Virus record (IMG/VR): IMGVR_UViG_3300032239_001223
Coordinates: 1-33,906 of that record
Reading direction: 5' to 3' (one strand)
Source: a virus
Taxonomy: Duplodnaviria; Caudoviricetes
Length of the DNA: 33,906 nucleotides
A program made the position numbers and the translations under genes. Below, piece after piece: positions 2,595 through 33,584 of the stretch; the stretch's first letter is position 1, and each line of letters begins with the position of its first letter. The notes under the pieces were generated by a model. It was not told the DNA's origin. It saw nothing but the letters and a program-made list of their open reading frames with translations, and did no database searches.

Positions 2595-5093
2595 TTACAC
2601 CATTGATACTGTAGTGAATGCGCTTGGGTGTGAGAAGTCTTTTGCTAGTGCGCGAGTGAAGGTATCTTCTACTAATCTTGCACTTGCTTTCACTGAGTGA
2701 TCTGGGTTCGGTGGTTTTGGTGATGCCTGAGGTCTGGCTGGAACAGAAATTCGCGGTGCAGGGGAAACATTTGAAGCAACCATTTGTTCTTTCGCAGCAG
2801 TGACTTCGGTTGTATTCTCAGCAACTGCTTGAGCATACGTTGGTGGTGTCTCAACTGGAGAAGCTGTTGGATCAGTAGATGGTGTTGGTGGAACTGGAGA
2901 AGCTGTTGGAGGAGAAGCTGTTGGAGCAGAAGGTGCTGATATAGCAGCAGCGGCTGGACTACTATCTCCACCATTCCCTGCAATTGGAGCAGGTCCAGCC
3001 TGCGCGACTGCATCCGGAACATCCGGAACTTGTACAGATTGCCCAGTACTAAGATCAACATCCTTTCCATTTGCATCAGCTACAATAGGCTTTGATCCTG
3101 GTGTTGGATTGTCTGGTGTTGGAGGTGTTCCGCTCGCCTGAACGTGCCATGCTTCATTGTTTAATGGTCTAATCAATCCAAATAGAGCTAGGAATGAATC
3201 AGTAGTCATCTTCTGACCATTAACAACTGAACCGTCAATTGCATCAATACCAGCTGCGCCCTTTGAATTAATATCAACAGCAAGACCAGAATTATGCGCG
3301 CTGCCCTTGCCACCTAATGCTTGTGGTAATGCAACCCACTTTCTAGTTGCTGCTTTGAGTTTCGCATCATCCCAATCTGGGTGTTGCTTTTTTATTTCAG
3401 CATACTTTTTATTCCAAAGTTCAAGCTGTTTAGCATCACTTCTGACACCAGATGTGATCATTAAAGTTTTGCCAGTTGCATCTTTAAATGCTGCAGCCAT
3501 TTTAGCAACACGGTCTTCAAATCCGTCATCGAGACCTTTAATGTCTACACCAGAATTTTGTAGTGTTACTACTTTGCTTAGATCTGGAGCCTTACCGCCA
3601 GAAACTGTAATACTATCATTCGCTGCTTTTTTATCTGAAGATCCACTTGGTGGTGAACCTCCAGCCATGTTTGATCCTTGAGGTGTTGCTGTTGGTGTTG
3701 GTGCTGCTGCTGCTGGTGCTGCTGCTGCTGGTGCTGGTGGTGCTGCTGCTGCTTGTTCTGCTTCTGGTGCTGCTGCTGCTGGTTCTTTTGGTGGTGCTGC
3801 TTCTGGTGCTGCTGCTGGTTCTTTTGGTGGTGCTGCTTCTGGTGCTGCTGCTGGTTCTTTTGGTGGCGCTGCTCCTTCTTTTGGAGGAACAGGTGCTGCT
3901 GCATCGCTGCCTTTTAAGAATGAGAATGGAGCAAAATGAATAGGACCGCCGAACGCTTTCGGCAATGGTAGTGTAAAGTCGACTTTAAGGAGCATATCTT
4001 TGAGAAAGTCCCAAATAGCTGAACCTATTTTTTTATAAAGGTCTAATTCCGCGCTAAAAAACTTATATATAAGTTCACCAGCTTTAATAAGCAATGGAAA
4101 TGCTGCTCCAATAGCGCCACCGATGAGTCCATAGAATTTCTTTAGACTGAACATGTCTAAAATTTCTTCGACAAAATCAGAAACCTTTTTAACATTTTCA
4201 CCAATCTTATCAACACCTTCACCAACTTTTGCAACTTCTTCTTCAGTTGCTGGATTTGGTCCTTTAACAGTCTCGGCTTTGCCTTCCATAACCTTACTTG
4301 CTGTTGCTGTTCCGCCTGCTGCAGCGCCTGCAAGTGCTGCACCACTATTTCCAATACCTGCAACTTTTAGAGCAGATGGGCTTAGGTTCATTTTTTGTCT
4401 GGCAGTCTCAGCTCCAACCATTTTCTTGGTTTTAATGTCGTGATATCTACCAGTTTCTTTTGAATACTTGAGACCAGAATCTTTCTCGAGTTTTCTCATT
4501 GCTTTCTTGGTTGTTGGAACTTCCTTTGAAGGACTTGCACGAAGTTTATTGGCAATACCTTCTACAACAGAACGAATTTCTTTTACAATGTCAAAGATTT
4601 TACTAATATTATCAGTTAAATCTTTTTGAACAGTTTCCTTTTTCTCTGCTTCTTTCTTTTCTTTTTTGGGCTTTGCCTTTTCGTCTAGATTAAATTTCTC
4701 TCTGAGTTTTGTTAACTCTTTATCATCAACTTTCTTACCAAAAATTCTATCAATCATTGCAGCTGATTTTGGATCTGCACCAAATGCCTTGGCAATATTA
4801 CCATATCTGGACTTCACACCAGTCTTGGCTGTTTTAAATTCTTGTTGTAACTCAAATGATTTCTGAGCACCTTTGACGCCACCTTTGAGTCTTCCGATAA
4901 CACCAGTTTTGCCTTCTAGTTCTTTATTAAAGGCTTCTTCCTGAAGTTCTTTTAGCTTATCATTCTTTATACCATCATCTTTTTTAGAGCGTTTCTTTTT
5001 ACCAGAAGCTGTTGACTCAAGTAAATCCTCAAGTGTCATATCTGGATTTTTCTTTAAAAGATCAGCTAGTTTTGCTTTTTTATTAATCTTCAT
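2595..5093 (-). CDS. gp29/tape-measure-like virion protein with an M15 (VanY-like) Zn peptidase domain
   Basis: Lys/Glu-rich helical N-terminus, a hydrophobic segment (FYGLIGGAIGAAFPLLI) and Pro/Ala linkers. Peptidase motifs ITSGVRS..Q, SAHNSGLAVDI and EAWHVQ. Located downstream of the gp26/gp51-like genes. Confidence 0.7.
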   Translation of the reverse strand: MKINKKAKLADLLKKNPDMTLEDLLESTASGKKKRSKKDDGIKNDKLKELQEEAFNKELEGKTGVIGRLKGGVKGAQKSFELQQEFKTAKTGVKSRYGNIAKAFGADPKSAAMIDRIFGKKVDDKELTKLREKFNLDEKAKPKKEKKEAEKKETVQKDLTDNISKIFDIVKEIRSVVEGIANKLRASPSKEVPTTKKAMRKLEKDSGLKYSKETGRYHDIKTKKMVGAETARQKMNLSPSALKVAGIGNSGAALAGAAAGGTATASKVMEGKAETVKGPNPATEEEVAKVGEGVDKIGENVKKVSDFVEEILDMFSLKKFYGLIGGAIGAAFPLLIKAGELIYKFFSAELDLYKKIGSAIWDFLKDMLLKVDFTLPLPKAFGGPIHFAPFSFLKGSDAAAPVPPKEGAAPPKEPAAAPEAAPPKEPAAAPEAAPPKEPAAAAPEAEQAAAAPPAPAAAAPAAAAPTPTATPQGSNMAGGSPPSGSSDKKAANDSITVSGGKAPDLSKVVTLQNSGVDIKGLDDGFEDRVAKMAAAFKDATGKTLMITSGVRSDAKQLELWNKKYAEIKKQHPDWDDAKLKAATRKWVALPQALGGKGSAHNSGLAVDINSKGAAGIDAIDGSVVNGQKMTTDSFLALFGLIRPLNNEAWHVQASGTPPTPDNPTPGSKPIVADANGKDVDLSTGQSVQVPDVPDAVAQAGPAPIAGNGGDSSPAAAAISAPSAPTASPPTASPVPPTPSTDPTASPVETPPTYAQAVAENTTEVTAAKEQMVASNVSPAPRISVPARPQASPKPPNPDHSVKASARLVEDTFTRALAKDFSHPSAFTTVSMV
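3685..3880. repeat. 36-nt tandem repeat (PPKEPAAAPEAA) plus GCT/GGT low-complexity tract
   Basis: ggttcttttggtggtgctgcttctggtgctgctgct at 3781 and 3817, with a partial copy at 3853. Confidence 0.9.
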
Positions 5094-20478: not shown

Positions 20479-22494
20479 ATGAATAGTAAAAAGTCTATAC
20501 TCACTGAACCATTTAGCAATTTAATTGCGGCGCAGGTTAAGAAACTAACCACTAGCAGTTCAAATACATTTATTGGTATTGGTCGAATAATTGATTCCGG
20601 ATCAACTGAAAACAACATTGAAGATGCAATCTATACTACAGTTTATAGAAATCAAGTTTATAAGAATTTAGTTGCACTAAAGAAAATCGTTCCTTCAGAT
20701 ATTCAGCCAGTTATTCCTCGAGTAGACTGGACTTCTAATCGTATGTATGATGCCTATGATGATATGGTCCAGATCTATGATTATAGAGATTATTATAGTT
20801 TTGGCACAGTTAATGCTAATGCAAATACTACTCTTACGGGCACAGCTAATATTGCCGCCTCTAATGCGGTAATTGGAAATAACAGTACACAATTCCTAAC
20901 GTATATTTTTGCTGGCGATCGTATCAATGTTAATAATGAAATTAAAACAGTCGTTTCTGTAACAAATAATAAGCATTTAATAGTCAGCAGCAATTTCACC
21001 AACACAAATACAGACGGACCAATTGTTCTTTTGCAGAATAACACAATTATCGTTGCCAATTCAGCTAATTTTATTGGTAACGTTGATGTAGGAAATGTAA
21101 TCGTTATTGGCGAAGATACCAGAGAAGTCGTAGCATTAAGAAACAATAAAGTAATCGCAGTAAATACGTCTCTAACATATTCAAATTCAAACGTAACAAT
21201 TCGCAGACAAGATAATACTTTCACTCTCTTCGCCAATACTTTTTATGTTCGCAACACTCGCGATCAGGTCTTTAAGTGCCTGTTCAATAATTCTCAGACG
21301 AACTCAACTATTGAACCAACGATTGATATCGACGGTCAGCTCCCAGAAAATGCGTTTATTCTTACTTCCGACGGATATAAGTGGAAGTATATGTACACGA
21401 TTCCACCTGGACTGAAACAGAAGTTCTTCACACAGAACTGGATGCCAGTTGCAAACGATGCGGCTGTTCAAGTAGCCGCCGGAGATGGTCGCGTCGATAT
21501 TATTAATGTTCTCTGGGGTGGTTCTGGGCATTTGAGTGGCGGAAATAGTAACTCTGCTTCTATCCTTTCTATCACTAATACGGACGGTGCAGGTGCAAAT
21601 CTTGTTGCTAGGGTTGCAAACGGTGTAATTACATCGGTAGCAGTTCTAGATGGCGGAAACAGTTATACCTCCGGAACCGTTACAGTAAATGACTCAAGTA
21701 AACTAGGTATTAAAACATTGGCTGGAACTATTAATGTTTCATCGACTGTAATTACTGGAAACACTTCAAATTCGCCGTATTTCGTCGGAAACGTCTTTAC
21801 GAACGATATTTTAACAATTAATGGCGAGACTAGAAACGTTGTATCGGTTATAAGTGATACCAGTTTAACTGTAAATACTGCGTTCAATTATGCTGTAACA
21901 GATAGAATCGGTATAATCACTAGATCTGCCGCAGTATTCGATATTTCGTATCCACCAAAAGGTGGCCACGGCTCGGATCCAGCAAAAGAACTCGGTGCAA
22001 GAGATTTAATGATTTCAGTCGAACTAATTTCGGATGAAAATGAAACTCTTCCAATTTCAGATGCTGTTAATACTTATCATTTTAATCAGATTTCAGTTAT
22101 TTCAGACCCTCTGATTGCAAACGGTGCTTGGACAGCGAATAGCACAAACTATCGCTATTCAACCCGACTAACCATGAGCGATACTGGAATTACCAATTTT
22201 ACTGATGATGAAACAGTTTATATTGGATCAACGTTGAGTGGAGCGTCGATGGTTGCAAATGTTGTTCACTGGGACACAGACAATAACTATCTTTATATAA
22301 ATAACATAACTGGTCCTATTACTGGATCTCAGGTTTTAAAGAGCGTTAAATCTGGTGTTGTTTCGACGATTATTGAAGTGAAAACATCAGAAATTAAACC
22401 ATATACTGGGGACGTTCTTTATATCGAAAATCGCAAAAACGTTGTTCGAGATATTGATCAAATCGAACAAGTTAAAATCGTTCTTACATTCTAG
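20479..22494 (+). CDS. gp8: gp8 baseplate wedge subunit
   Basis: VIPRVDW, VFKCLFN, DGYKWKYMYTI, GGHGSDPAKELG and YTGDVLYIENR...EQVKIVLTF. Confidence 0.92.
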   Translation: MNSKKSILTEPFSNLIAAQVKKLTTSSSNTFIGIGRIIDSGSTENNIEDAIYTTVYRNQVYKNLVALKKIVPSDIQPVIPRVDWTSNRMYDAYDDMVQIYDYRDYYSFGTVNANANTTLTGTANIAASNAVIGNNSTQFLTYIFAGDRINVNNEIKTVVSVTNNKHLIVSSNFTNTNTDGPIVLLQNNTIIVANSANFIGNVDVGNVIVIGEDTREVVALRNNKVIAVNTSLTYSNSNVTIRRQDNTFTLFANTFYVRNTRDQVFKCLFNNSQTNSTIEPTIDIDGQLPENAFILTSDGYKWKYMYTIPPGLKQKFFTQNWMPVANDAAVQVAAGDGRVDIINVLWGGSGHLSGGNSNSASILSITNTDGAGANLVARVANGVITSVAVLDGGNSYTSGTVTVNDSSKLGIKTLAGTINVSSTVITGNTSNSPYFVGNVFTNDILTINGETRNVVSVISDTSLTVNTAFNYAVTDRIGIITRSAAVFDISYPPKGGHGSDPAKELGARDLMISVELISDENETLPISDAVNTYHFNQISVISDPLIANGAWTANSTNYRYSTRLTMSDTGITNFTDDETVYIGSTLSGASMVANVVHWDTDNNYLYINNITGPITGSQVLKSVKSGVVSTIIEVKTSEIKPYTGDVLYIENRKNVVRDIDQIEQVKIVLTF

Positions 22495-22504
22495 GTAGAA
22501 ACTC

Positions 22505-25500
22505 ATGGAATTTAATGTAGAGCCGTATCATGATGATTTTAAGCAAAATGCTTTAGATAATAATTATCTTCGCATTCTGTTTAAGCCAGGACAGGCAGTC
22601 CAGGCACGCGAACTAACTCAAATCCAGTCGATTCTACAGAATCAGATTAAGCAGTTCGGGGACCATATTTTTCAGAATGGTTCGCCAGTGATTGGCGGAA
22701 ATATGACCTTGGATAATAAGGTTAAATTTCTAAAATTAGAAGCCACATATAATAATCAAGACGTTGACGTTGATGAGTTTCTTGGAAAAGTCATCCGCAA
22801 CACAGATGGAAACATCCAAGCGAAAGTTTTAACGAATTATTCCGAGAGCGGAATACCAACTTTAATCATTAAATATATAACTGGTAACGAATTTACTGAT
22901 GGTGATATTATTACCATCGCTAGAACAACTACAAAGGCTCAATTGATCGGTTCTGGTTCTACTGGTCCAGCATTAATTTGTTCTATTAATGAGGGTGTGT
23001 TCTATGTCGATGGATTCTTTATCAAAGTCCAGGATCAGACAACACCTCTTAATGCATATGGAACTACAGCAAGTGTGAAGGTTGGTCTACAGATTTCAGA
23101 TGATATTGTCGATTATGTTGTTGATACCACGCTACTTGATCCAGCCCAAGGCTCGTTCAACTATCAGGCTCCAGGCGCTGATCGTTATCAGTTTAATTTA
23201 ACTTTATCGACACGCCCAATCGATACCATCATCGATGAATCTAGATTTTTCGAATTGATGCGTATTGAAGACGGTATTATTACAAAACAGATAAAATACC
23301 CTGTTTATGCTGAATTGGAGAAGTCTCTAGCTCGTCGCACATACGATCAGTCTGGTGACTTTACTGTAACTCCATTCCGTGCAACGTTGACCGAGGGTTC
23401 CGATGCAAATTACTATACAATTGCAATTGAGCCAGGAAAAGCATACGTCAAAGGTTTCGAGTTTGAAACGCTCGGCACTGTAAAGGTTGATGTTGAAAAG
23501 CCACGTTCAGCATCAGATGTTAAATCATATGTTGATATCGATGCAGATACCTCATATGGAAATTATATCTATGTAACCGGAATTCGCGGTTCAGCTAATG
23601 GATTTATTAATATCGCTGCTCTAGAAACAGTTGATATTCATACAGTTGACTCTTCAAACGTTGCTGTTGGTTTTGGAACAACAGCAAATGTTCAAATCTA
23701 TTCAAATACTAAAATTGGTACTGCTAGAGTTAAATCATTTGTTCGTGATAGTACAGATCAATTTGGAGTTAATTCCGCAAATACAGACTCTAATGGTGTT
23801 TACAAACTTTATCTGACAGATCTTGCAATTAAACCAAAAATCGTTAAAGTTAGCGGAAATTCAGGCACTTCATGTACTACAATTAATCTATCTAATAAAT
23901 TCTCAGCAGCAACAAACGCTTATGCTAATGTTAAATTGACTATTCTGCCGATTCGCTTAGATGCTGTTGCAAATATTAACGTTGCAAACGTTTTTATGAG
24001 CACTTATACTTTAAATGCTAACTCTGCAGTTGCTAATTCATGTAATGTATTTTCAATTGGTGATATTATTCGCGTCGGTGATATGGTGCGCAGAGTCGTT
24101 AGCGTTGTTAAAGATGGTAGCGGAAATGCAAATACTCTAACAGTTAATACTGCTTGGACGCAAACTATTATTGGGACTAATTCCACGACTAATCCTCTTG
24201 AAGTATTAAAACAAAATTCTTATTCACAGAGTATCAGTAATCAAACCCGCAAGATTATATCATCTTCACTGACCTCCGCAAATGTTGTATTAACTCTTGA
24301 TTCTGCGTTCGATAACAATGGTATTGCCGATAGTAATACAGTCATACAGTTAAACTATGGTATTGCGGATGCTGATTCGATTATTGCCGGAGTTATTGTC
24401 GGCGCAAATAACCTAGTAACTCCGAATGCAAATGTTACAATGAATGTCTCTTCAGTTGGAAGATTGACTGATGGGTCAACTTATATTACTGATCCAACAA
24501 ATTATAAGTTAATTTTTCCACTTCCTGGCAATTATGTAAGACGCGGTTCATTGAATAATGTAGACCATATCTACAATAAGTTAATACCTAATCGTTCAAA
24601 TACTGGAACTGTAAATCCTGGTCAGTTTATTCTCTCCCAAGGTTCTGGTCTTGAAACATTTGAAACAATTCCTTTCGCCGATTCAACTGGCAAGATTCAA
24701 GACAATCTAATCGTTGTGGTTAGAGATAATAACGGAGATCCCTTTTTCCCTAATGGTTCTATCGTTCAATTAACCGCTGCGAATATTAGTATTAGTGGAC
24801 TCGCAGACCAGATCACGATCAACACACCATGCGCTAATATTAAATCTGCTGATATCATCATTAATGTCAAAGAAAATGATGTTCAAACTAAAATCCGTAA
24901 AAAGATTTTGATGTCAACTACCACCCCAACAGTATCGCCATTTACCTATCCAGAAACTACATCAACAGCAAATGTAACTGTTTCGCTGCCAACTTTCGGA
25001 GAAGTTGCTAAAATTGACGTTGCCAATGGTTTTATTTGGTTAACGAATCCAACTTATAATGCTATACAGCAAGGTGATATTATTTCACTGTTCTGCCCAG
25101 ACGTGCTTAGAGTTCGTGCAGTCATTGCTGGTAATTCTACAATTGTTCCAAACAACACTGTGCATACAGATGTAACTCAAAGTTTCGGTCTTATTTCTGG
25201 AGTAAGCGACGATTCATACGATCATTCAAAACTTCAGTTACTCTCTGGATATGATACTGTAAATGCTAAACTTCTTGTTCATGTTGACATGTATCAGCAT
25301 ATTTACTCAGCTGGATCAAATGTTTCCTACTTCTCAGTAGATTCGTATGCTGAGTCAATTTATAATTCTGGACAAATTCCAATCTACAAGTCATCGGATA
25401 CAAATCAAACTTATTATCTAAGAGATTGTTTAGATTTTCGTCCAACTCGTCAAATTGGTGATGTGTCTAATGCATACCAGGTCCCAAATATTCCTAGTCC

Positions 25501-27130
25501 AGATAATAGAACAGAACTTTCATTTGACTATTATCTTCCAAGAATAGACAAATTGGTTTTGAGTAAAGATAAAGAATTCCGTGTGATCACAGGTAAGTCA
25601 GCATCTCTTCCGATTCCACCAAATGATGTTGACGATGCAATGACTCTATTTCAGATTAATTTACCCCCTTATGTTGCAGATGTGCGCGAGGCGCGTCTAA
25701 AGTATTTTGATAATCGTCGCTTCACAATGAAAGACATTTCTTCGATTAGCAAACAAGTAAGTCAATTATCATACTATGTTTCATTAAGTAATGCTGAAAA
25801 TCTAGCTCTTTCCGATTCCGCACGATATGAAGACGGAACTGATAAAGTAAAATATGGTATCGTCGGCGAAAACTTCACAAACTTTAACATCGCTGATTAT
25901 AAAAATCCAGATTTCAGCGTGGCGCTCGATAATGGTGTAATGACACCATCCATTCAATACTTTATGACTGGTTTAAAAGAAGTTAGTTCTTCTACTTCTA
26001 CTTCTCAAAATATGAAAACTATTTCATTGAGTTATACAGAAACTCCAGCTATCGTTCAAGGCGTGACTGCTGACAAGGCAGTCACGGTGCAGCCATTCTT
26101 GTTCGGTGCATTCAATGGCACAGTTGAATTATATCCAGATACTGATTACTGGGTATCTCAACAATTGAAACCAGAAGTAATTGCTCCACCAGAGACAATT
26201 ATTACTGAAAAGATTGTAATTAGAGAAATAATTGTTGAGCATCCATCACAACCTTCTGGTAATGTTAGCACTAATGCAAATACAGTAATCATCACAACAC
26301 CAGGAACATCTCCACGTGCAAATTCTGGTAGCAATGTTGTAATTGCGACGGGCAATACTGGGCCAATAGTTATAACTCCTGATCCAACGCCGCCGCTGGA
26401 TCCGCCGATGCCACCGCCAGAAACAAATCAATGCATTGAGTATTCATATATTGCAGATCCATGGCAAGACAATGGATGTTGGGATACAAATTATTGGGGA
26501 GGTTACTATGGAGTTTATCCGTCACTTCAATGCACCAAATTTGGAACTTTGACTGGAAGCAATTGGTTCCCAGTAGTAGATACTCCACCTCCACCTCCAC
26601 CAGTTGAGGTGACTCCAGCTGTAGTTTCACAGCCAATTTATGCAGGTAGTGGCGGTTGTCCAGATCCATCAATGCTCATATTGCTTGCTGATGGAACTTG
26701 GATTGCTGCTGGTGATCTGCAAATTGGTATGATGCTTCGCACTCAACACGAAAATACGTTTGAGTGGGGTGAATTCCAAGTAGTTTCTAAAGAAATTGTA
26801 ACTCAACCTAAACTTGAACTTACATTTGGTACTAAGACTGCAGTTGTTTCCAAGTCTCACAGATTCTGGGTCGACAGCAAGACTGCATGGATCAATTCAG
26901 AGCATCTTGAGATTGGTGATATAATCAACGGTTATATCTTAACTGAATCTAAGGATCTGATTGATGGCCCAGTTGTCAAAATCACGGTTGACGAAGCACA
27001 TACATACATCATGGAAGGTCTATTATCGCATAATGTTAAGGTCAATCCTGGCTATGAGGCTGATCTTCCTGCCGTTAATGGGGGTGGTTCAAGATACGGA
27101 TCAAATCAGAACTTCGATTTCTTATATTAA
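22505..27130 (+). CDS. VrlC/DUF4815-like virion protein, N-terminal half, ending in a Hint domain
   Basis: FNVEPYHDDF, ILFKPGQAVQARELTQIQSILQNQ, APGADR, LARRTYDQSGDF, YYLPRIDKL and NRRFTMKDI, followed by a C-terminal C...HN Hint domain. Confidence 0.85.
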   Translation: MEFNVEPYHDDFKQNALDNNYLRILFKPGQAVQARELTQIQSILQNQIKQFGDHIFQNGSPVIGGNMTLDNKVKFLKLEATYNNQDVDVDEFLGKVIRNTDGNIQAKVLTNYSESGIPTLIIKYITGNEFTDGDIITIARTTTKAQLIGSGSTGPALICSINEGVFYVDGFFIKVQDQTTPLNAYGTTASVKVGLQISDDIVDYVVDTTLLDPAQGSFNYQAPGADRYQFNLTLSTRPIDTIIDESRFFELMRIEDGIITKQIKYPVYAELEKSLARRTYDQSGDFTVTPFRATLTEGSDANYYTIAIEPGKAYVKGFEFETLGTVKVDVEKPRSASDVKSYVDIDADTSYGNYIYVTGIRGSANGFINIAALETVDIHTVDSSNVAVGFGTTANVQIYSNTKIGTARVKSFVRDSTDQFGVNSANTDSNGVYKLYLTDLAIKPKIVKVSGNSGTSCTTINLSNKFSAATNAYANVKLTILPIRLDAVANINVANVFMSTYTLNANSAVANSCNVFSIGDIIRVGDMVRRVVSVVKDGSGNANTLTVNTAWTQTIIGTNSTTNPLEVLKQNSYSQSISNQTRKIISSSLTSANVVLTLDSAFDNNGIADSNTVIQLNYGIADADSIIAGVIVGANNLVTPNANVTMNVSSVGRLTDGSTYITDPTNYKLIFPLPGNYVRRGSLNNVDHIYNKLIPNRSNTGTVNPGQFILSQGSGLETFETIPFADSTGKIQDNLIVVVRDNNGDPFFPNGSIVQLTAANISISGLADQITINTPCANIKSADIIINVKENDVQTKIRKKILMSTTTPTVSPFTYPETTSTANVTVSLPTFGEVAKIDVANGFIWLTNPTYNAIQQGDIISLFCPDVLRVRAVIAGNSTIVPNNTVHTDVTQSFGLISGVSDDSYDHSKLQLLSGYDTVNAKLLVHVDMYQHIYSAGSNVSYFSVDSYAESIYNSGQIPIYKSSDTNQTYYLRDCLDFRPTRQIGDVSNAYQVPNIPSPDNRTELSFDYYLPRIDKLVLSKDKEFRVITGKSASLPIPPNDVDDAMTLFQINLPPYVADVREARLKYFDNRRFTMKDISSISKQVSQLSYYVSLSNAENLALSDSARYEDGTDKVKYGIVGENFTNFNIADYKNPDFSVALDNGVMTPSIQYFMTGLKEVSSSTSTSQNMKTISLSYTETPAIVQGVTADKAVTVQPFLFGAFNGTVELYPDTDYWVSQQLKPEVIAPPETIITEKIVIREIIVEHPSQPSGNVSTNANTVIITTPGTSPRANSGSNVVIATGNTGPIVITPDPTPPLDPPMPPPETNQCIEYSYIADPWQDNGCWDTNYWGGYYGVYPSLQCTKFGTLTGSNWFPVVDTPPPPPPVEVTPAVVSQPIYAGSGGCPDPSMLILLADGTWIAAGDLQIGMMLRTQHENTFEWGEFQVVSKEIVTQPKLELTFGTKTAVVSKSHRFWVDSKTAWINSEHLEIGDIINGYILTESKDLIDGPVVKITVDEAHTYIMEGLLSHNVKVNPGYEADLPAVNGGGSRYGSNQNFDFLY
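26657..27034 (+). other. Hint (intein-like/BIL-type) autoprocessing domain, 126 aa, no endonuclease
   Basis: Starts GG|CPDPSMLILLADGTWIAAGDLQIG (block A), contains VSKSHRFW (block B His) and WINSEHLEIGD, and ends VKITVDEAHTYIMEGLLSHN (blocks F/G). The +1 residue is Val. Confidence 0.9.
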
Positions 27131-27157
27131 AGTTTAATTAGGATTTAGAGAACAAAT

Positions 27158-30100
27158 ATGGCAATATCAACAGAATATGGATCAGTAGTTGTAGACACAA
27201 GTCTAGTCCCTTATATTAGAGAAAAGGACGTAGATTTTGTTGCAAGAAACTTAAAACCATATAAAATTTCTACGTTATTTTTCGATGATATCGCAATTAA
27301 TGGTTTTTGCCAATGCGGCAATAAACTTAAAATTGATGCAAAAAAAGTCGTAGTTATCAGTTCAAATAATACTGGAACTATTAGCACCAATGATATTGCT
27401 TATCAAGGCACTTCAAACACGGTAAATACTTTCAGTGCTGTAGTTGCTGCTTGGTACACAGCAAACTCTACTGTTGTTTTTAAAGATATTATTGGCGATT
27501 TTGACGATATTGCTCAGCTGTATATTGAAGGTGTTGCTGGTGCAACTAACGGAATAACCTATGCAAATTGCAACGTTACAAGTGTAACTGATTATCAAAC
27601 TTCTGACATGTTCGATATGGACGAAGGGGTTATCGATAAACAGGCAGGTAATGCCTTCGCCAGAGTTATTTCAACTTCTGGTGAGAATATTCTTTATATC
27701 GACCACAATTTTATTAACATTAATGTTAATGCAGTCGGTGACATAGGCTCAATGATCTATGATTATAAAGCTGGTGATATTGTTTACCAGACCGTCGATG
27801 GAACTCAAGGGTTTGATGATACAAAAATTACCTTCAAGGGTTTTGTTAAATATTATAACGCACTCGGAACTCCAACAATTGCGATTTCGCCGATTAACGG
27901 AACTATTCTTGCAAATTCAACTTCTACAAGTTCAAATGCATATGTTCGTTTATGGAATGCTTCGAATGCTTCTTCGCAACCACTTTCTGCCAATGCATTT
28001 AATACAAATAATTTTTTAGTTTCGCACAATGTACAGAGCGCGACAGACAGCACTATGACTGTTAAGATTACATCCTACGAACATCGTTCTGGTATAATCG
28101 CTAATACAGCGATGCCGAATAATAAGACGATTATTTTCAATAATAAAAATGGTACTGAGAATCCAGCGAATGGTAATTTAGTTTACTTCACAGCCGGAAC
28201 TGGCGTTGGCCAGCTAAAAAGAATCGTTGCAGTTAGCAATGATATTGCCGTTCTTGATAGCGAATTGAGTTTCTCTGTGACTTCAAATACTCATTATAGT
28301 CTGGGAAATTTTATTGTTGACGATCATGGTACTATCGGTGGCATTTTCCACATTCCATCTAGTCCATATATTAAGTTTAAAACTGGTGAAAGATTATTCA
28401 CCATCACTGATACTGACCAGTATAATGATCCCAACTATGCAATGAGAGCAACTCATCGCTATTCTGCTTCCGCTGTTTTGAATACTAAACAGCGAATTCA
28501 GATGACACCAATCATTGCACCGATGCCGGAAACAGAGGCTGATACATTAGTTGCCCCTATTGATCCATCTAATAGAACTTTCAATTCAGACGCATCGAAG
28601 TCGCCAGTTACAGGCTCAACCACTTCAAATATTCCAAGAATTCCTCTCGGAGATGGTTTATCGCAGACATTCTTTACACCTAAGAAGGCTTCAAACAATC
28701 AAGACTATGGTATGTTTGTGTCGTCAATTGACCTATTCTTTAAAACTAAACCAAGCGTCGCCGCTGGTAGCATGCGATTGCCAATAACAATTAAAATTGC
28801 TGAGGTTTCAAATGGATATCCAACTAAAGTGTATCGCGCAGCTAAGACTATTCAGTGTAAAGATGTAAATATTTCTAATCTTCCTAATCCGTCAGATGCA
28901 AAAACATTAACAAAATTCACCTTTGACGATCCAGTATATTTGGAACCAAATCGCGAATACGCAATTGTAATTGGTTCAGATTCGCCAGATTATTCGGTTT
29001 ATACTGCAGTTATTGGTGAAAATGTTCTCGGCTCAAACCCAGTTCGTCGTATTTCCGAGCAACCATATGCAGGATCGTTCTTCCGTTCGCAGAATAGCTC
29101 AACTTGGACACCATATCAAAACGAAGATCTAATGTTTGTTATTAATAAAGCTGTATTCGCTGCCTCCGGAACAGCAGTATTCAATATGGAAAAAGCCCCA
29201 ATCGGAATGGGATTCGTTGATAAGACTTTCCTAATTTCTTCTGATCTCGCATTCCCAGGTGCTAATATAGCTTATCAATTGCAAGGTATTTACGCTAACA
29301 ATGTGACTTACGATGGAGGAAACTACATAACTCCATATAAAATGCTGGAATATGGATCACTTTTTGATAAGTCTAATAAAACTGGTCAAAATAAAAATAG
29401 AAGAATTATTCGTCCTGGTAATGCGAATAGTGTAATTTTAACAGTTGATATGTATACTCGCGATTCAGATATTTCACCAATTCTTAATACTGAGAGATTA
29501 GCTCTTAATGCAATCAAATATGAAATCAATAATGCGGGATTAACAAATAATATTATTTCTATTACCAGTGTTGGTTCTGGATATAATGCAGTCTCAACTA
29601 GCAGTGGTGGTAATGTAATATTAGGTTCATCTAATACTACAACTAATAATTATGCCCAATTCTATAGAGAAAAATTCTTAGGAAACAATTTTAATGTTGC
29701 TTTTTACAATATCAATATTACTAATAATCCAAATGATAGTGGTTCTGGTGCTTATGGTTTTGCTGTAGCAAACACTGACGGAAAAAATACTTTGAATTAT
29801 ATTATTTTAACTAATTCTGGTGAAGGGTATCTAGAAACACCAACGATTACTATTGCCGCAGGTAATGCTGTTTCTAACACTCAAGCAACAGCATTAATCT
29901 CTGGCGAAACTGATAAATCTGGTGGTAATATTCTATCTAAGTATATAACCCGCGAGATTATTCTTGAAGATGGATTTGAATCTGGGGATATCTCAGTATT
30001 CATGGATGTAATTCGCGTCACAAATACAGATATCCAAGTTTATTATAAAGTTGTTTCGACAGAGGACCCAGACCCGTTAGGTGATAAAAGTTGGAAAAGA

Positions 30101-30328
30101 ATGCAAAAAGTCAAAAATGTTTTCTCAAAAGACTATAATACAAAAATCACTTTACAATTTAAACCAGATTTAAATAAGAATCAAATCTCTTATACTGAGA
30201 ACGGTGTGAACTACCCAATCGGCGGAACATTCAAGTCTTTCGCAATTAAAGTATGTCTGTTAACAACTGATGGCGCTCTGGTACCAAAACTAGATAACCT
30301 TAGAATTAATGCTTTACCTGCAGGTTAA
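27158..30328 (+). CDS. VrlC/DUF4815-like virion protein, C-terminal half
   Basis: VVDTSLVPYIRE..FVARNLKP, FKTGERLF, DGLSQTF, FVSSIDLFFKTK, TKFTFDDPVYL, GSFFRSQNSSTW..Q.EDLMF and FKSFAIK. Confidence 0.85.
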   Translation: MAISTEYGSVVVDTSLVPYIREKDVDFVARNLKPYKISTLFFDDIAINGFCQCGNKLKIDAKKVVVISSNNTGTISTNDIAYQGTSNTVNTFSAVVAAWYTANSTVVFKDIIGDFDDIAQLYIEGVAGATNGITYANCNVTSVTDYQTSDMFDMDEGVIDKQAGNAFARVISTSGENILYIDHNFININVNAVGDIGSMIYDYKAGDIVYQTVDGTQGFDDTKITFKGFVKYYNALGTPTIAISPINGTILANSTSTSSNAYVRLWNASNASSQPLSANAFNTNNFLVSHNVQSATDSTMTVKITSYEHRSGIIANTAMPNNKTIIFNNKNGTENPANGNLVYFTAGTGVGQLKRIVAVSNDIAVLDSELSFSVTSNTHYSLGNFIVDDHGTIGGIFHIPSSPYIKFKTGERLFTITDTDQYNDPNYAMRATHRYSASAVLNTKQRIQMTPIIAPMPETEADTLVAPIDPSNRTFNSDASKSPVTGSTTSNIPRIPLGDGLSQTFFTPKKASNNQDYGMFVSSIDLFFKTKPSVAAGSMRLPITIKIAEVSNGYPTKVYRAAKTIQCKDVNISNLPNPSDAKTLTKFTFDDPVYLEPNREYAIVIGSDSPDYSVYTAVIGENVLGSNPVRRISEQPYAGSFFRSQNSSTWTPYQNEDLMFVINKAVFAASGTAVFNMEKAPIGMGFVDKTFLISSDLAFPGANIAYQLQGIYANNVTYDGGNYITPYKMLEYGSLFDKSNKTGQNKNRRIIRPGNANSVILTVDMYTRDSDISPILNTERLALNAIKYEINNAGLTNNIISITSVGSGYNAVSTSSGGNVILGSSNTTTNNYAQFYREKFLGNNFNVAFYNINITNNPNDSGSGAYGFAVANTDGKNTLNYIILTNSGEGYLETPTITIAAGNAVSNTQATALISGETDKSGGNILSKYITREIILEDGFESGDISVFMDVIRVTNTDIQVYYKVVSTEDPDPLGDKSWKRMQKVKNVFSKDYNTKITLQFKPDLNKNQISYTENGVNYPIGGTFKSFAIKVCLLTTDGALVPKLDNLRINALPAG

Positions 30329-30330
30329 TT

Positions 30331-30552
30331 ATGAAAGCACGAGTTAAAGAAAATATGAATTATGTGAAAGACCTCAATAACTTTGCTATTCTGAATACCA
30401 ATAAAGCAGTCGTTAAAGAACATGAAAAGAAAATGGCGGATTTAAAAAGAATTAAGTCCACAGAAAATGAAATAAATAGTTTAAAATCAGAAGTATCAGA
30501 AATTAAATCGATGCTTTCCCAGATTCTTAAGGCTGTAGGCGGCGAGAAATAA
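30331..30552 (+). CDS. Small coiled-coil hypothetical protein
   Basis: [14 protein letters not shown]...[20 protein letters not shown]; a similar gene commonly follows VrlC-like genes in T4-like phages. Confidence 0.8.
30472..30478 (+). promoter_or_regulatory. Possible late promoter for the fibre genes
   Basis: ATAAATA about 76 nt upstream of the fibre ATG. Confidence 0.35.
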
Positions 30553-30554
30553 AC

Positions 30555-33500
30555 ATGGCAAATACCGTAGATGTAGGGTTAACGACAACTTCTAATACGT
30601 TCAATCAATGGCGTATTTCGACCAATCTTTTGGCAAATGACGTCAATGAGATTGCTCGAGGTAATTTCATCAAGCCAAGAGGTAATGTGACGATCCAAGA
30701 TGGGTATCTACATATTGACAAGAGTTCTGGGACTAATCTTTTAGTTGCAGCTGATGCGCGTATTGCCGGAAAAGGTTTTATCCATTCAATTGAATCTGAT
30801 GCTGATGGTTACGTTTATCTGCCTTCTGGCGACATTACCATGGCCAATCGCGCTAGTGGTGCACTATTTCAAGCCAATATTAATACAGTTTTCACTTCAG
30901 CTAATGTAACAATCTCTAACACTACTGTTGGTGGTACGTTTAACGTTGCTTCAAATACCAGAATTACTGCATCTAACGTAACGATTTCGAATACTTTAGT
31001 CGGTGGTACGTTTAACGTTGCTTCAAATACTTTTATTACTGCATCTAACGTAACGATTTCGAATACTTTAGTCGGTGGTACGTTTAACGTTGCTTCAAAT
31101 ACCACGATTTCCGCTCAAATTGTTAGTGTGTCTAATACTGTTTCAGCTGCTCGATTTAACGTCTCACCAAATACTTTCTTCTTTGGCGGATCAGTTAATG
31201 TTGCAAATACAACTAGCGGCGCAACATTCAATGTCAGTCCAAACACGTTTATTTTTGCGAGTGCTAATGTCAGCTTGAATGTCAACATCGGTTCAATGCT
31301 AGAAGTCACTGGTAATGCAAATCTGTATTCTAACCTCGGTGTAACGTGGAATACATTTACTGGAAACGCTATAGTTTCTCAGAATACTTCAACAGGTAAT
31401 CTCGCTGTTACTCAGAACACTACCTCTGGAAACGCTGTAGTTTCTCAGAATACTTCAACAGGTAATCTGGCTGTTACTCAGAACACCTCAACAGGTAATC
31501 TGGCAGTCACTCAGAACACCTCGACGGGTAATCTTATTGTTTCGACTTTGGCTAATATTGCAACAGGTAATATCGTAACAGCTAACATCGCCACGCTTAA
31601 TGTTAATGCATCAGGTGCTTCTGCGAATATTGCTAATGCCAATATTGCAAATGTTGCGATAACAAACACACAAATATCTGTAGCGAATGTTTACACCCAG
31701 TTAAACTCTTTGTCTTCAAATCTAACAACTGCTAATGTCGCAACGTTAAATGTGTTCGCTGTTGGTGCAATCGCTAATATCGCAAATGCAAATATTGCGA
31801 ATGTAGCAGCTACAAACACGCAAATTTCTGTAGCAAATGTTTACACCCAGTTAAACTCCTTGTCTTCAAATATCATCACCGCGAATATCGCCACTCTTAA
31901 TGTTAATGCTGTAGGTGCTATTGCCAATATTGCGAATGTTTCTATTGCAAATAGTTCAACTACAAATGCAACTGTAAGCCTCTTCACGGTTACAACTCGC
32001 GCAAACGTTGTACTTGCTAATATTACAACTGCGAATATCGCTACTCTTAATGTTAATGCATCAGGTGCTTCTGCGAATATTGCTAACGCCAATATTTCAA
32101 ATGTTGCGATAACAAACACGCAGATATCTGTGGTAAACGTTTACACCCAGTTAAACTCTTTTTCTTCAAATATCATCACTGCGAATATCGCCACCCTTAA
32201 TGTTACCACTGTTAATGTTACAAATCAGACTGTGAGTGGAACTCTAAACGCTTCTACGGCAAATATTACAAGTCTTGCGATGAATGTTTCTGGAACCAGT
32301 GCAGCATTAAACATAGGTTCTATTTACAATCTTACTGTTTATGATTTATTTGTTAAAAATACTCAGACTAACGAAGGAACAACTATTTCATCTTCTGACG
32401 TTTTTCAACTCAGAAGTGCTGTTAATAGTAGAGCACCTGGATACATCGGCGTTCAGCTAGGAACTGCTGCTAATGGTAATGCTTGGATTACATTCGATAC
32501 AGTAGCGGGTAATATTTGGCGCGTAACCGAGAATAGTACAGCTGGAATTTATAAGACTCTTCTAACAACTTCGAATGTGGTCGATTCAGTCACGTCTACA
32601 AGTACTGTTGATGCTGCGGCTCCTAAATCGGTCAAAACGACTTATGATGCATTAACTTCAACCGTAGCAACATTAAATACAACCTTCGGCACTGTTAATA
32701 CTACGTTCGGAACTATTAACACCAATGCGACTAATATTAATTCCAATGGGTTGAATGCATATGCTGTAGCAAATTCTGCGGCGAATACCGTTCGAGTTTC
32801 TGCTAATAGCGGATCAAGTCTAAGCAGCAAACAGCTAAACTTTGTTAATACGTCAACTGTTCTTGTGTCTGTTGCTCAGCATGGTGGCGATGCATCAAAT
32901 GCGAATGTATCGTTTACAATTACTAATGCAGCGACTGGTGCTCAAGGTCCTCAAGGTCCTCAAGGTCCACAAGGTCCATCTGGTGCTTCGGTCACAGGTC
33001 CTCAAGGTCCACAAGGTCCACAAGGTCCACAAGGTCCACAAGGTCCATCTGGTGCTTCGGTCACAGGTCCACAAGGTCCACAAGGTCCACAAGGTCCATC
33101 TGGTGCTTCTGTCACAGGTCCACAAGGTCCACAAGGTCCACAAGGTCCATCTGGTGCTTCTGTCACAGGTCCACAAGGTCCATCTGGTGCTTCGGTCACA
33201 GGTCCTCAAGGTCCACAAGGTCCACAAGGTCCATCTGGTGCTTCTGTCACAGGTCCTCAAGGTCCTCAAGGTGTCACAGGTGCTCAGGGTCCACAGGGTC
33301 CACAGGGTCCATCTGGTGCTTCTGTCACAGGTCCTCAAGGTCCTCAAGGTGTCACAGGTGCTCAGGGTCCTCAAGGTGTCACAGGTGCTCAGGGTCCACA
33401 AGGTCCACAAGGTCCACAAGGTCCATCTGGTGCTTCTGTCACAGGTCCTCAGGGACCAACTGGTCCAGTTGGAGCCAATTATCTTCGTAATGTAACCAGC

Positions 33501-33584
33501 GGATATACTAGCGGCGGTCAAGTTTTTGTTTCCTCGAGTACACCGACTGCAAGTGCTGCTGGTGATATCTGGTTGCAGATCTAA
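30555..33584 (+). CDS. Tail fibre with Asn/Ala/Thr-rich repeats and a collagen-like segment
   Basis: N-terminal [11 protein letters not shown] anchor motif, several repeat families, (GPQ)n, and a C-terminal [10 protein letters not shown]. Confidence 0.85.
30900..31103 (+). repeat. 72-nt (24-aa) tandem repeat, 3 copies
   Basis: ggtggtacgtttaacgttgcttcaaatac at about 30930, 31002 and 31074. Confidence 0.9.
31360..31545 (+). repeat. 33-nt (11-aa, [11 protein letters not shown]) tandem repeat, about 5 copies
   Basis: Seen in both the translation and the DNA (cagaa(t/c)ac...ggtaat). Confidence 0.85.
31581..32205 (+). repeat. 150-nt (50-aa) repeat, 4 copies
   Basis: ttacacccagttaaactc at 31691, 31841 and 32141; the third copy is diverged. 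Confidence 0.85.
32937..33473 (+). repeat. Collagen-like repeat (ggtccacaa)n interrupted by 8 GPSGASVT units
   Basis: Read directly from the sequence and its translation. Confidence 0.95.

Follow-up and report, generated by a model that had tools for sequence, protein, structure and literature searches.

The locus described here raises the question of what an intein-like (Hint) domain does at the carboxyl end of a phage baseplate protein, when the residue that follows its His-Asn end is a valine and not Cys, Ser or Thr. The stretch of DNA analyzed (i.e., the window) is 33,906 nt long, coincides entirely with its IMG/VR record and represents the tail and baseplate region of a T4-like phage, with homologues of gp32, gp59, the tail tube protein, gp5, gp25, gp6 and gp8. 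The window also contains a Hydrolase_2 (cell wall hydrolase) gene (68-505) upstream of gp59 and gp32, a minus-strand gene (2595-5093) among the tail genes for an 832-aa protein with a VanY-like peptidase stretch (E = 8e-7) and, directly 3' of the VrlC genes described below, a gene (30555-33584) for a fibre-like protein (1009 aa) that contains Asn/Ala/Thr repeats as well as an extended collagen-like region. No second Hint domain was found elsewhere in the window.

The Hint domain is carried by ORF1 (22505-27130, + strand; 1541 aa), which together with ORF2 (27158-30328, + strand; 1056 aa) encodes a VrlC/DUF4815 baseplate protein that is split into an N-terminal and a C-terminal half. Membership in this family is based on homology to PF16075 (E = 1e-55 for ORF1) and phrog_358 and on the location of the genes after that for the baseplate wedge protein gp8. 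ORF1 and then ORF2 match successive parts of phrog_358 (positions 6-1115 and, as the best stretch of ORF2, 1320-1589), and both align in the same order with the DUF4815 protein of phage 812 (PDB 9euf; E = 3.5e-23 for ORF1, 792-969 for ORF2), which we take from its PDB label and our own reading to be the tripod protein gp119. In alignments with VrlC of Pelagibacter phage Mosig, a single chain of 2045 aa, ORF1 matches up to residue 1276 and ORF2 from residue 1373 onward; the gap between the two alignments corresponds to residues 612-671 of the 812 protein, and the split point is an internal linker in single-chain VrlC. Thus, VrlC is a single chain in Mosig, the cultured phage examined, and in phage 812 (1152 aa), whereas in the window it is split, with a tether and the Hint domain on the first chain. 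VrlC is reported to be an abundant baseplate protein (PMC4621102, PMC7029224), and trimers of the DUF4815 family are reported to form the baseplate "tripods" of phage 812, which are rearranged upon infection (PMC13433997). The carrier, originally described as a major virion protein, is only the first half of this split baseplate protein.

Among the 14 loci found with ORF2, 13 also held ORF1, and the halves were split at all 13. Because 6 of the 10 distinct split loci were without a Hint domain, the gene split is independent of the Hint. The amino ends of ORF2 vary, with a Met-Pro start in two Hint carriers, and no promoter or terminator signal above shuffles was found at the ORF1/ORF2 split.

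The Hint domain comprises 126 residues (1385-1510 of ORF1; 26657-27034, + strand), as delimited from the sequence, the family profile, an AlphaFold2 model and PDB matches. In ORF1, GSGG is followed by CPDPSM at residue 1385, SKSH at residues 1449-1452, SHN at residues 1508-1510 and a 31-aa tail that leads to the stop codon. The Hint positions, all on the + strand, are occupied by Cys1 (26657-59), Ser B7 (26849-51), His B10 (26858-60), Lys at F4 (26978-80), His G6 (27029-31) and Asn G7 (27032-34); within 126 aa there is no room for a homing endonuclease. By itself, the domain scores below the cut-offs of existing families (PT-HINT, PF07591: E = 6e-4 and 20-21 bits vs. a Pfam cut-off of 27.7; TIGR01443: 15.3 bits vs. 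a cut-off of 15.6). Within the 106-sequence alignment of its family, 76 members match PT-HINT and 56 match Intein_splicing at E ≤ 0.01, and the family profile matches the gp41-1 intein (E = 4e-9) and the Clostridium thermocellum BIL (CthBIL, 2lwy; E = 1.7e-6). The AlphaFold2 model built from this alignment, which covers the Hint without the tail, has a mean pLDDT of 97.2, and its best PDB matches are BIL2 of Tetrahymena (6y75; TM 0.87-0.89), the C. thermocellum BIL (0.85) and gp41-1 (0.81); there were 64 PDB matches at E ≤ 0.001, and those listed were inteins, BILs, Hedgehog and Vint. These results supersede a single-sequence fold of the Hint (pLDDT 31) and a single-sequence PDB search, which returned nothing relevant. 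The predicted fold of residues 1385-1510 is more than a chance resemblance, and on this model the domain belongs to the HINT superfamily. The original prediction had read a Hint domain at these residues from the Cys after GSGG, the SKSH and the His-Asn end, with no endonuclease, a Val at +1 and a 31-aa tail before the stop, and had asked for a Hint profile or structure search; the ORF1 sequence and both searches bear this reading out.

The stretch recurs uninterrupted, on one contig, in a second run from the same study, and positions 26623-27545 are present on a contig assembled in another study. Among the indels listed for matching contigs, none lies inside the Hint or tail, and no contig joints skipping the Hint were found in four runs (contigs cannot show absence). 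No RNA data set was listed as a source of matching sequence. PHROGs holds no family for the domain, and 1 of 50,697 INPHARED phage records, unannotated, matches it. An Atlas search with the domain returned only Hint-type clusters, mostly viral, and some uncultured phage proteins in UniProt are already labelled "Hint domain."

The family comprises 591 representatives at 50% clustering, the best 150 of which were examined. Before filtering, Cys1 was found in 173 of 184 domains (in the other 11, nothing aligned with that position) and the His-Asn end in 183 of 184. In a pool of 279 unique full-length domains, selected in part by Cys1 and His-Asn and leaving out four rows of one tandem array without His-Asn, His B10 is invariant (279/279) and B7 is Ser or Thr in 277/279. 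Position F4, which aligns with Asp107 of gp41-1 and is usually Asp, is Lys, Arg or His in 217/279.

Compared with characterized systems, the domain is one that would work like a type A BIL or BIL2. It shares with type A BILs (2lwy; PT-HINT) the Hint fold (TM 0.85), Cys1, the block B His, a His-Asn end without an endonuclease or Cys, Ser or Thr at +1, which corresponds to the reported definition of this type (PMC4031507, PMC7765530), and location in a hypervariable host region, as the tether and tail vary and empty alleles are common; the host is a phage protein and not a bacterial one. Unlike type A BILs, the family resides in phage virion proteins, has a near-invariant Lys at +1 or +2 and a basic F4, scores below the PT-HINT cut-off and is not followed by a toxin domain. 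The best structural match, at 18% identity, is BIL2 (6y75, 6tmm), which belongs to the Tetrahymena BUBL1 locus. Splicing by BIL2 reportedly yields an isopeptide on a Lys (PMC8616854), whereas in the window there is a conserved Lys from which such chemistry may be inferred. BIL2 is flanked by ubiquitin-like domains and reported to be zinc-regulated, whereas the window's Hint lies between a Pro/Gly tether and a short tail, with the Lys at the junction itself. No ubiquitin-like Pfam match was found in ORF1, where the flanks of the Hint are of low complexity, and the domain is not of the BUBL type. It resembles class 1 mini-inteins, such as gp41-1 (6qaz), in being the best sequence-profile match of these and an in-frame insert with empty alleles, with Cys1, B7, B10 and a His-Asn end; it is not one of them, as it lacks Cys, Ser or Thr at +1 and the F4 Asp and occupies the most variable part of a structural protein and not a conserved enzyme site. 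Neither is it a pretoxin-HINT, which has a toxin domain where ORF1 has 31 aa and a stop, nor a Hedgehog Hog domain, in which a sterol-recognition region takes the place of the His-Asn end and variable tail (11-35 aa in close relatives).

We noticed that Val+1 is followed by a lysine (Lys+2, residue 1512; the two codons at 27035-27040, + strand), which is the sole Lys of the tail. The original prediction correctly gave Val at +1 and overlooked this Lys. In this family, Lys occupies +1 or +2 in 272 of the 279 pooled domains. In the sample collected by protein search, 178 of 183 domains have Lys at one of these positions (114 at +1, 64 at +2), whereas Lys accounts for 97 of 2848 residues (3.4%) at +3 to +20 of the same domains; Ser or Thr is at +1 in 9/183 and Cys in 0/183. 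Because the protein query included the tail, a second sample was drawn with a DNA motif that ends at His-Asn and is blind to the residues downstream. From about 240 viral stretches, 120 were taken, together with 27 from genomes; duplicates, matches weaker than 1e-10 and domains whose ends were not located (including two archaeal inteins with Cys+1) were then removed. In this sample, Lys is at +1 or +2 in 126/130. In the pool (n = 279), Lys is at +1 in 160 domains, at +2 in 112, at +3 in 4 and at +4 in 2, and a contig end cuts the remaining one. The register switches between +1 and +2 at least 24 times on the Hint tree (shuffled mean, 86). Among tails of 5 aa or fewer, Lys is kept in 20/21, including two that consist of Lys alone, and the remaining tail is truncated by the end of its contig. 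One protein carries four family members in an array (L052:2049-5513, L047, L061 and L078), in which one copy lacks His-Asn (decayed; 4 contigs) and one has Arg-Arg instead of Lys behind it.

As a control, 26 rows of PT-HINT matches were evaluated, drawn from 30 loci in the genomes (n = 151) of one bacterial phylum and from a further match set. Lys is at +1 or +2 in only 1 of 17 long-tailed domains and in 4 of 4 with tails of 7-18 aa, while 5 more ends were not located; His-Asn cleavage elsewhere thus comes without the Lys. The four short-tailed domains end bacterial proteins (L174:1003-1929, L178:1480-3378 on the minus strand, L181:1-1926 and L197:463-1920) with a pilin-type leader, DUF4215 and MopE-type repeats in three of them, so the design is not confined to phages. 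His-Asn-x-Cys is found in 8 of the 17 long-tailed PT-HINTs (L172, L173, L176, L186, L190, L191, L196 and L198), where Cys+2 is in the x-Lys register.

The Hint is an optional part of its host. Among the best 120 of 497 ORF1 homologues, 66 have no Hint, 31 carry the window's family and 23 carry a second Hint family that is distantly related to it; a survey of DUF4815 relatives had been proposed originally, and this is its outcome. The window's family occupies the terminal poly-Gly site in 12 homologues, an internal site of the tether in 18 and both sites in one. A FastTree phylogeny of the cores requires at least 16 changes in the presence of a Hint, a count that does not distinguish gain from loss, and sister pairs differ by an in-frame insert directly after the Gly run. 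At the internal site, Lys+1 is found in 19/19 carriers and no Lys is found there in the six empty alleles inspected, indicating that the Lys travels with the domain. Similarity to empty alleles is 47% behind the internal inserts vs. 51% before them, as expected if the downstream segment stays attached. A profile of 39 empty-allele ends scored 12 of 18 internal-insert carriers above all 50 shuffles and 11 of 12 terminal tails no better than shuffles; the idea that the 31-aa tail is the conserved terminal motif of the host is therefore unsupported.

The second Hint family (profile-profile probability 93%, E = 3.5e-7 against the window's family) occupies the terminal site in 23 homologues (e.g., P0230 and P0248) and is also represented by L006:6492-6980 and L012:6483-6971. 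It lacks the block B His, has tails of 9-19 aa and gave no Pfam match for the two members checked. Its Lys is penultimate in 22/23 and at +1 in the other, vs. 6/66 empty alleles, a count that is not phylogenetically independent (12 changes on the tree). A third Hint-like type, which starts with Cys-Cys-Phe and ends at the stop without His-Asn or a tail, terminates small genes (~330 aa) downstream of the VrlC region in relatives (L009:4595-5578 and L010:12664-13656).

The domain is flanked by the most variable parts of ORF1. The tether (residues 1233-1384; 26201-26656, + strand) is a hypervariable Pro/Thr/Gly-rich segment (16% Pro, 2 Lys in 152 aa) that ends in GSGG, with Gly-1 at 26654-26656; it has a dN/dS of ~0.4-0.5 and is probably disordered, judging from its composition. 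Comparison of relatives shows that the tail (27035-27127, + strand) is hypervariable beyond x-Lys, with only 10-32% identity in 7 of 12 close relatives. Against a relative (L001), the Hint has core-like values (dS 1.38, dN 0.16; dN/dS ~0.12), compared with 1.16 and 0.57 for the tether, and by this measure the Hint is kept by purifying selection. Given intact catalytic residues and purifying selection, autoprocessing is likely, as originally predicted for this non-canonical Hint. That it is a domesticated module for maturation of the virion protein is not supported: it is absent from more than half of the best homologues, comes and goes on the tree and has been swapped between lineages. Release of the tail as a peptide, also proposed, is unlikely because the tail is so poorly conserved.

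Evidence of such swapping comes from a phage (L165) whose core is diverged from that of the window (dS 0.83-1.25), whereas the dS of its Hint is 0.05. A 489-bp tract (26623-27111) has 5 mismatches between the two and fits the Hint cassette closely, and the contig from another study begins matching at the same base (26623). The Hint cassette was probably exchanged recently between diverged phages. Three other near-identical tracts of 275, 246 and 165 bp were found in the ~9.6 kb compared with L165, and the swap may thus be part of ordinary mosaicism. They lie at 21310-21584, 22411-22656 and 30376-30540 of the window, in DNA otherwise 60-85% identical, two of them at gene junctions. Protein identities also differ between core and Hint, with 82-83% and 97-99%, respectively, for P0002 and P0003, and 94% and 73% for P0005. 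In the window's own clade the Hint is retained to near-saturated dS, and this retention also fits a useful role.

Hosts beyond VrlC were surveyed in 49 frames selected from the motif loci, among them an archaeal intein host and a carrier of a different type of Hint. No PHROG match was obtained for about half; the named best families are tail, tail-fibre, tail-assembly or virion proteins and one VrlC, and in two frames the Hint itself also matches a short part of a helicase profile. Several carriers lie in genomes of cultured Sphingomonas and Corallococcus strains, presumably as prophages.

We give about even credence to the proposal that the Hint is a mobile, self-removing insert of the BIL type in which the Lys side chain serves as the splice nucleophile and leaves an isopeptide link. 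In this reaction, Cys1 would form a thioester with Gly1384, the side-chain amine of Lys1512 would attack it to give a stable isopeptide branch, and cyclization of Asn1510 would free the Hint. The product would be a baseplate chain joined by an isopeptide bond to its own short tail, whose Val would keep a free amino group. A kink of this sort could be accommodated only where the chain is disordered, in linkers or at its ends, and these are the places in which the family sits; the Hint would spread by recombination without an endonuclease of its own. The predicted fold, catalytic residues, Lys conservation, patchy presence and cassette exchange were computed here, whereas we infer the chemistry wholly, the attack by Lys+2 on the Cys1 thioester following from the Lys conservation combined with the literature on BILs and BIL2. 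Lysine-dependent splicing would explain why the Lys travels with the domain and persists in one-residue tails, and why the family is restricted to flexible segments. Reports that Tetrahymena BIL2 splices into an isopeptide with the Lys epsilon-amine (PMC8616854) count in its favor, whereas those that type A BILs mostly cleave, with ligation possible through the freed alpha-amine (PMC4031507, PMC7664689, PMC7765530), count against it. The replacement of the F4 Asp points to an unusual active site, and the Lys could have another role. Covalent coupling of the C-terminal Gly had been suggested originally; an amide coupling is also our best guess, with the protein's own Lys+2 as the likely nucleophile instead of an external partner or small molecule.

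The strongest competing explanation is an ordinary type A BIL, cleaving at both ends through thioester hydrolysis and Asn cyclization with at most minor ligation to the Val alpha-amine, so that the chain end is trimmed and the Lys assists catalysis or folding. Every hallmark tested is present (Cys1, His-Asn, no +1 nucleophile and a hypervariable host region), 2lwy is among the top structural matches and the tail sequence is dispensable. We nevertheless consider this explanation rather unlikely, as it gives no reason for a Lys at two registers, in one-residue tails and, in the second family, 10-18 residues away, while long-tailed PT-HINTs do without the Lys and the segments downstream of internal inserts are conserved.

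It is improbable that the Hint is a domesticated cross-linker, whose thioester would be captured in trans by the tail Lys of a neighboring trimer subunit, another baseplate protein or a host-surface amine to staple the baseplate or anchor the phage. The named hosts are mostly tail and baseplate proteins, the 812 tripods are trimers, retention under purifying selection is long, BIL2 is reported to conjugate to other substrates (PMC8616854) and Gly-1 occurs in 47 of 61 x-Lys domains, as at the end of ubiquitin. Against this explanation stand the 66 Hint-free homologues, the close sister pairs that differ, the two insertion sites and the tandem arrays; moreover, outside amines should lose the competition to a Lys in cis that is two residues away from the active site.

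More improbable still is a Hint that stays unprocessed in the virion, where it would remain on the tether as a folded module for decoration or binding: the F4 Asp is replaced and the second family is missing the block B His, but the near-invariance of B10, B7 and His-Asn and the conserved adjacent Lys argue otherwise. Rejoining of the halves by ligation of ORF1 to the amino end of ORF2, or release of the 31-aa tail as a bioactive peptide, is barely credible even though the Hint is located where the gene is split and where single-chain VrlC has an internal linker, since the split also occurs without a Hint, ORF2 begins variably and with Met-Pro in two carriers, and the tail is hypervariable in sequence and length.

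In the literature searched, with subscription papers and bioRxiv supplements outside its scope, no description of Lys-tailed Hints in virion proteins or of a split VrlC was found. With slightly less than even credence, we tentatively propose that these domains are phage "lysine inteins," i.e., widespread mobile Hints of virion proteins that splice with a Lys side chain as nucleophile in place of the Cys, Ser or Thr at +1 and leave an isopeptide branch, and that at least two families have converged at this baseplate tail. One small construct suffices for a direct test, and relatives are available in phage-tail genes within the genomes of cultured environmental bacteria. Should cleavage be its sole activity, the domain would be of moderate interest, as a BIL family borne by phages. 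With the Lys as nucleophile, isopeptide bonds would form naturally without ATP or a separate enzyme, by means of a domain of 126 aa that exists in hundreds of natural variants, and such a Lys-dependent Hint could also serve as a compact ligation tool. Protein splicing would then extend beyond Cys, Ser and Thr, and many environmental phage particles would carry branched proteins.
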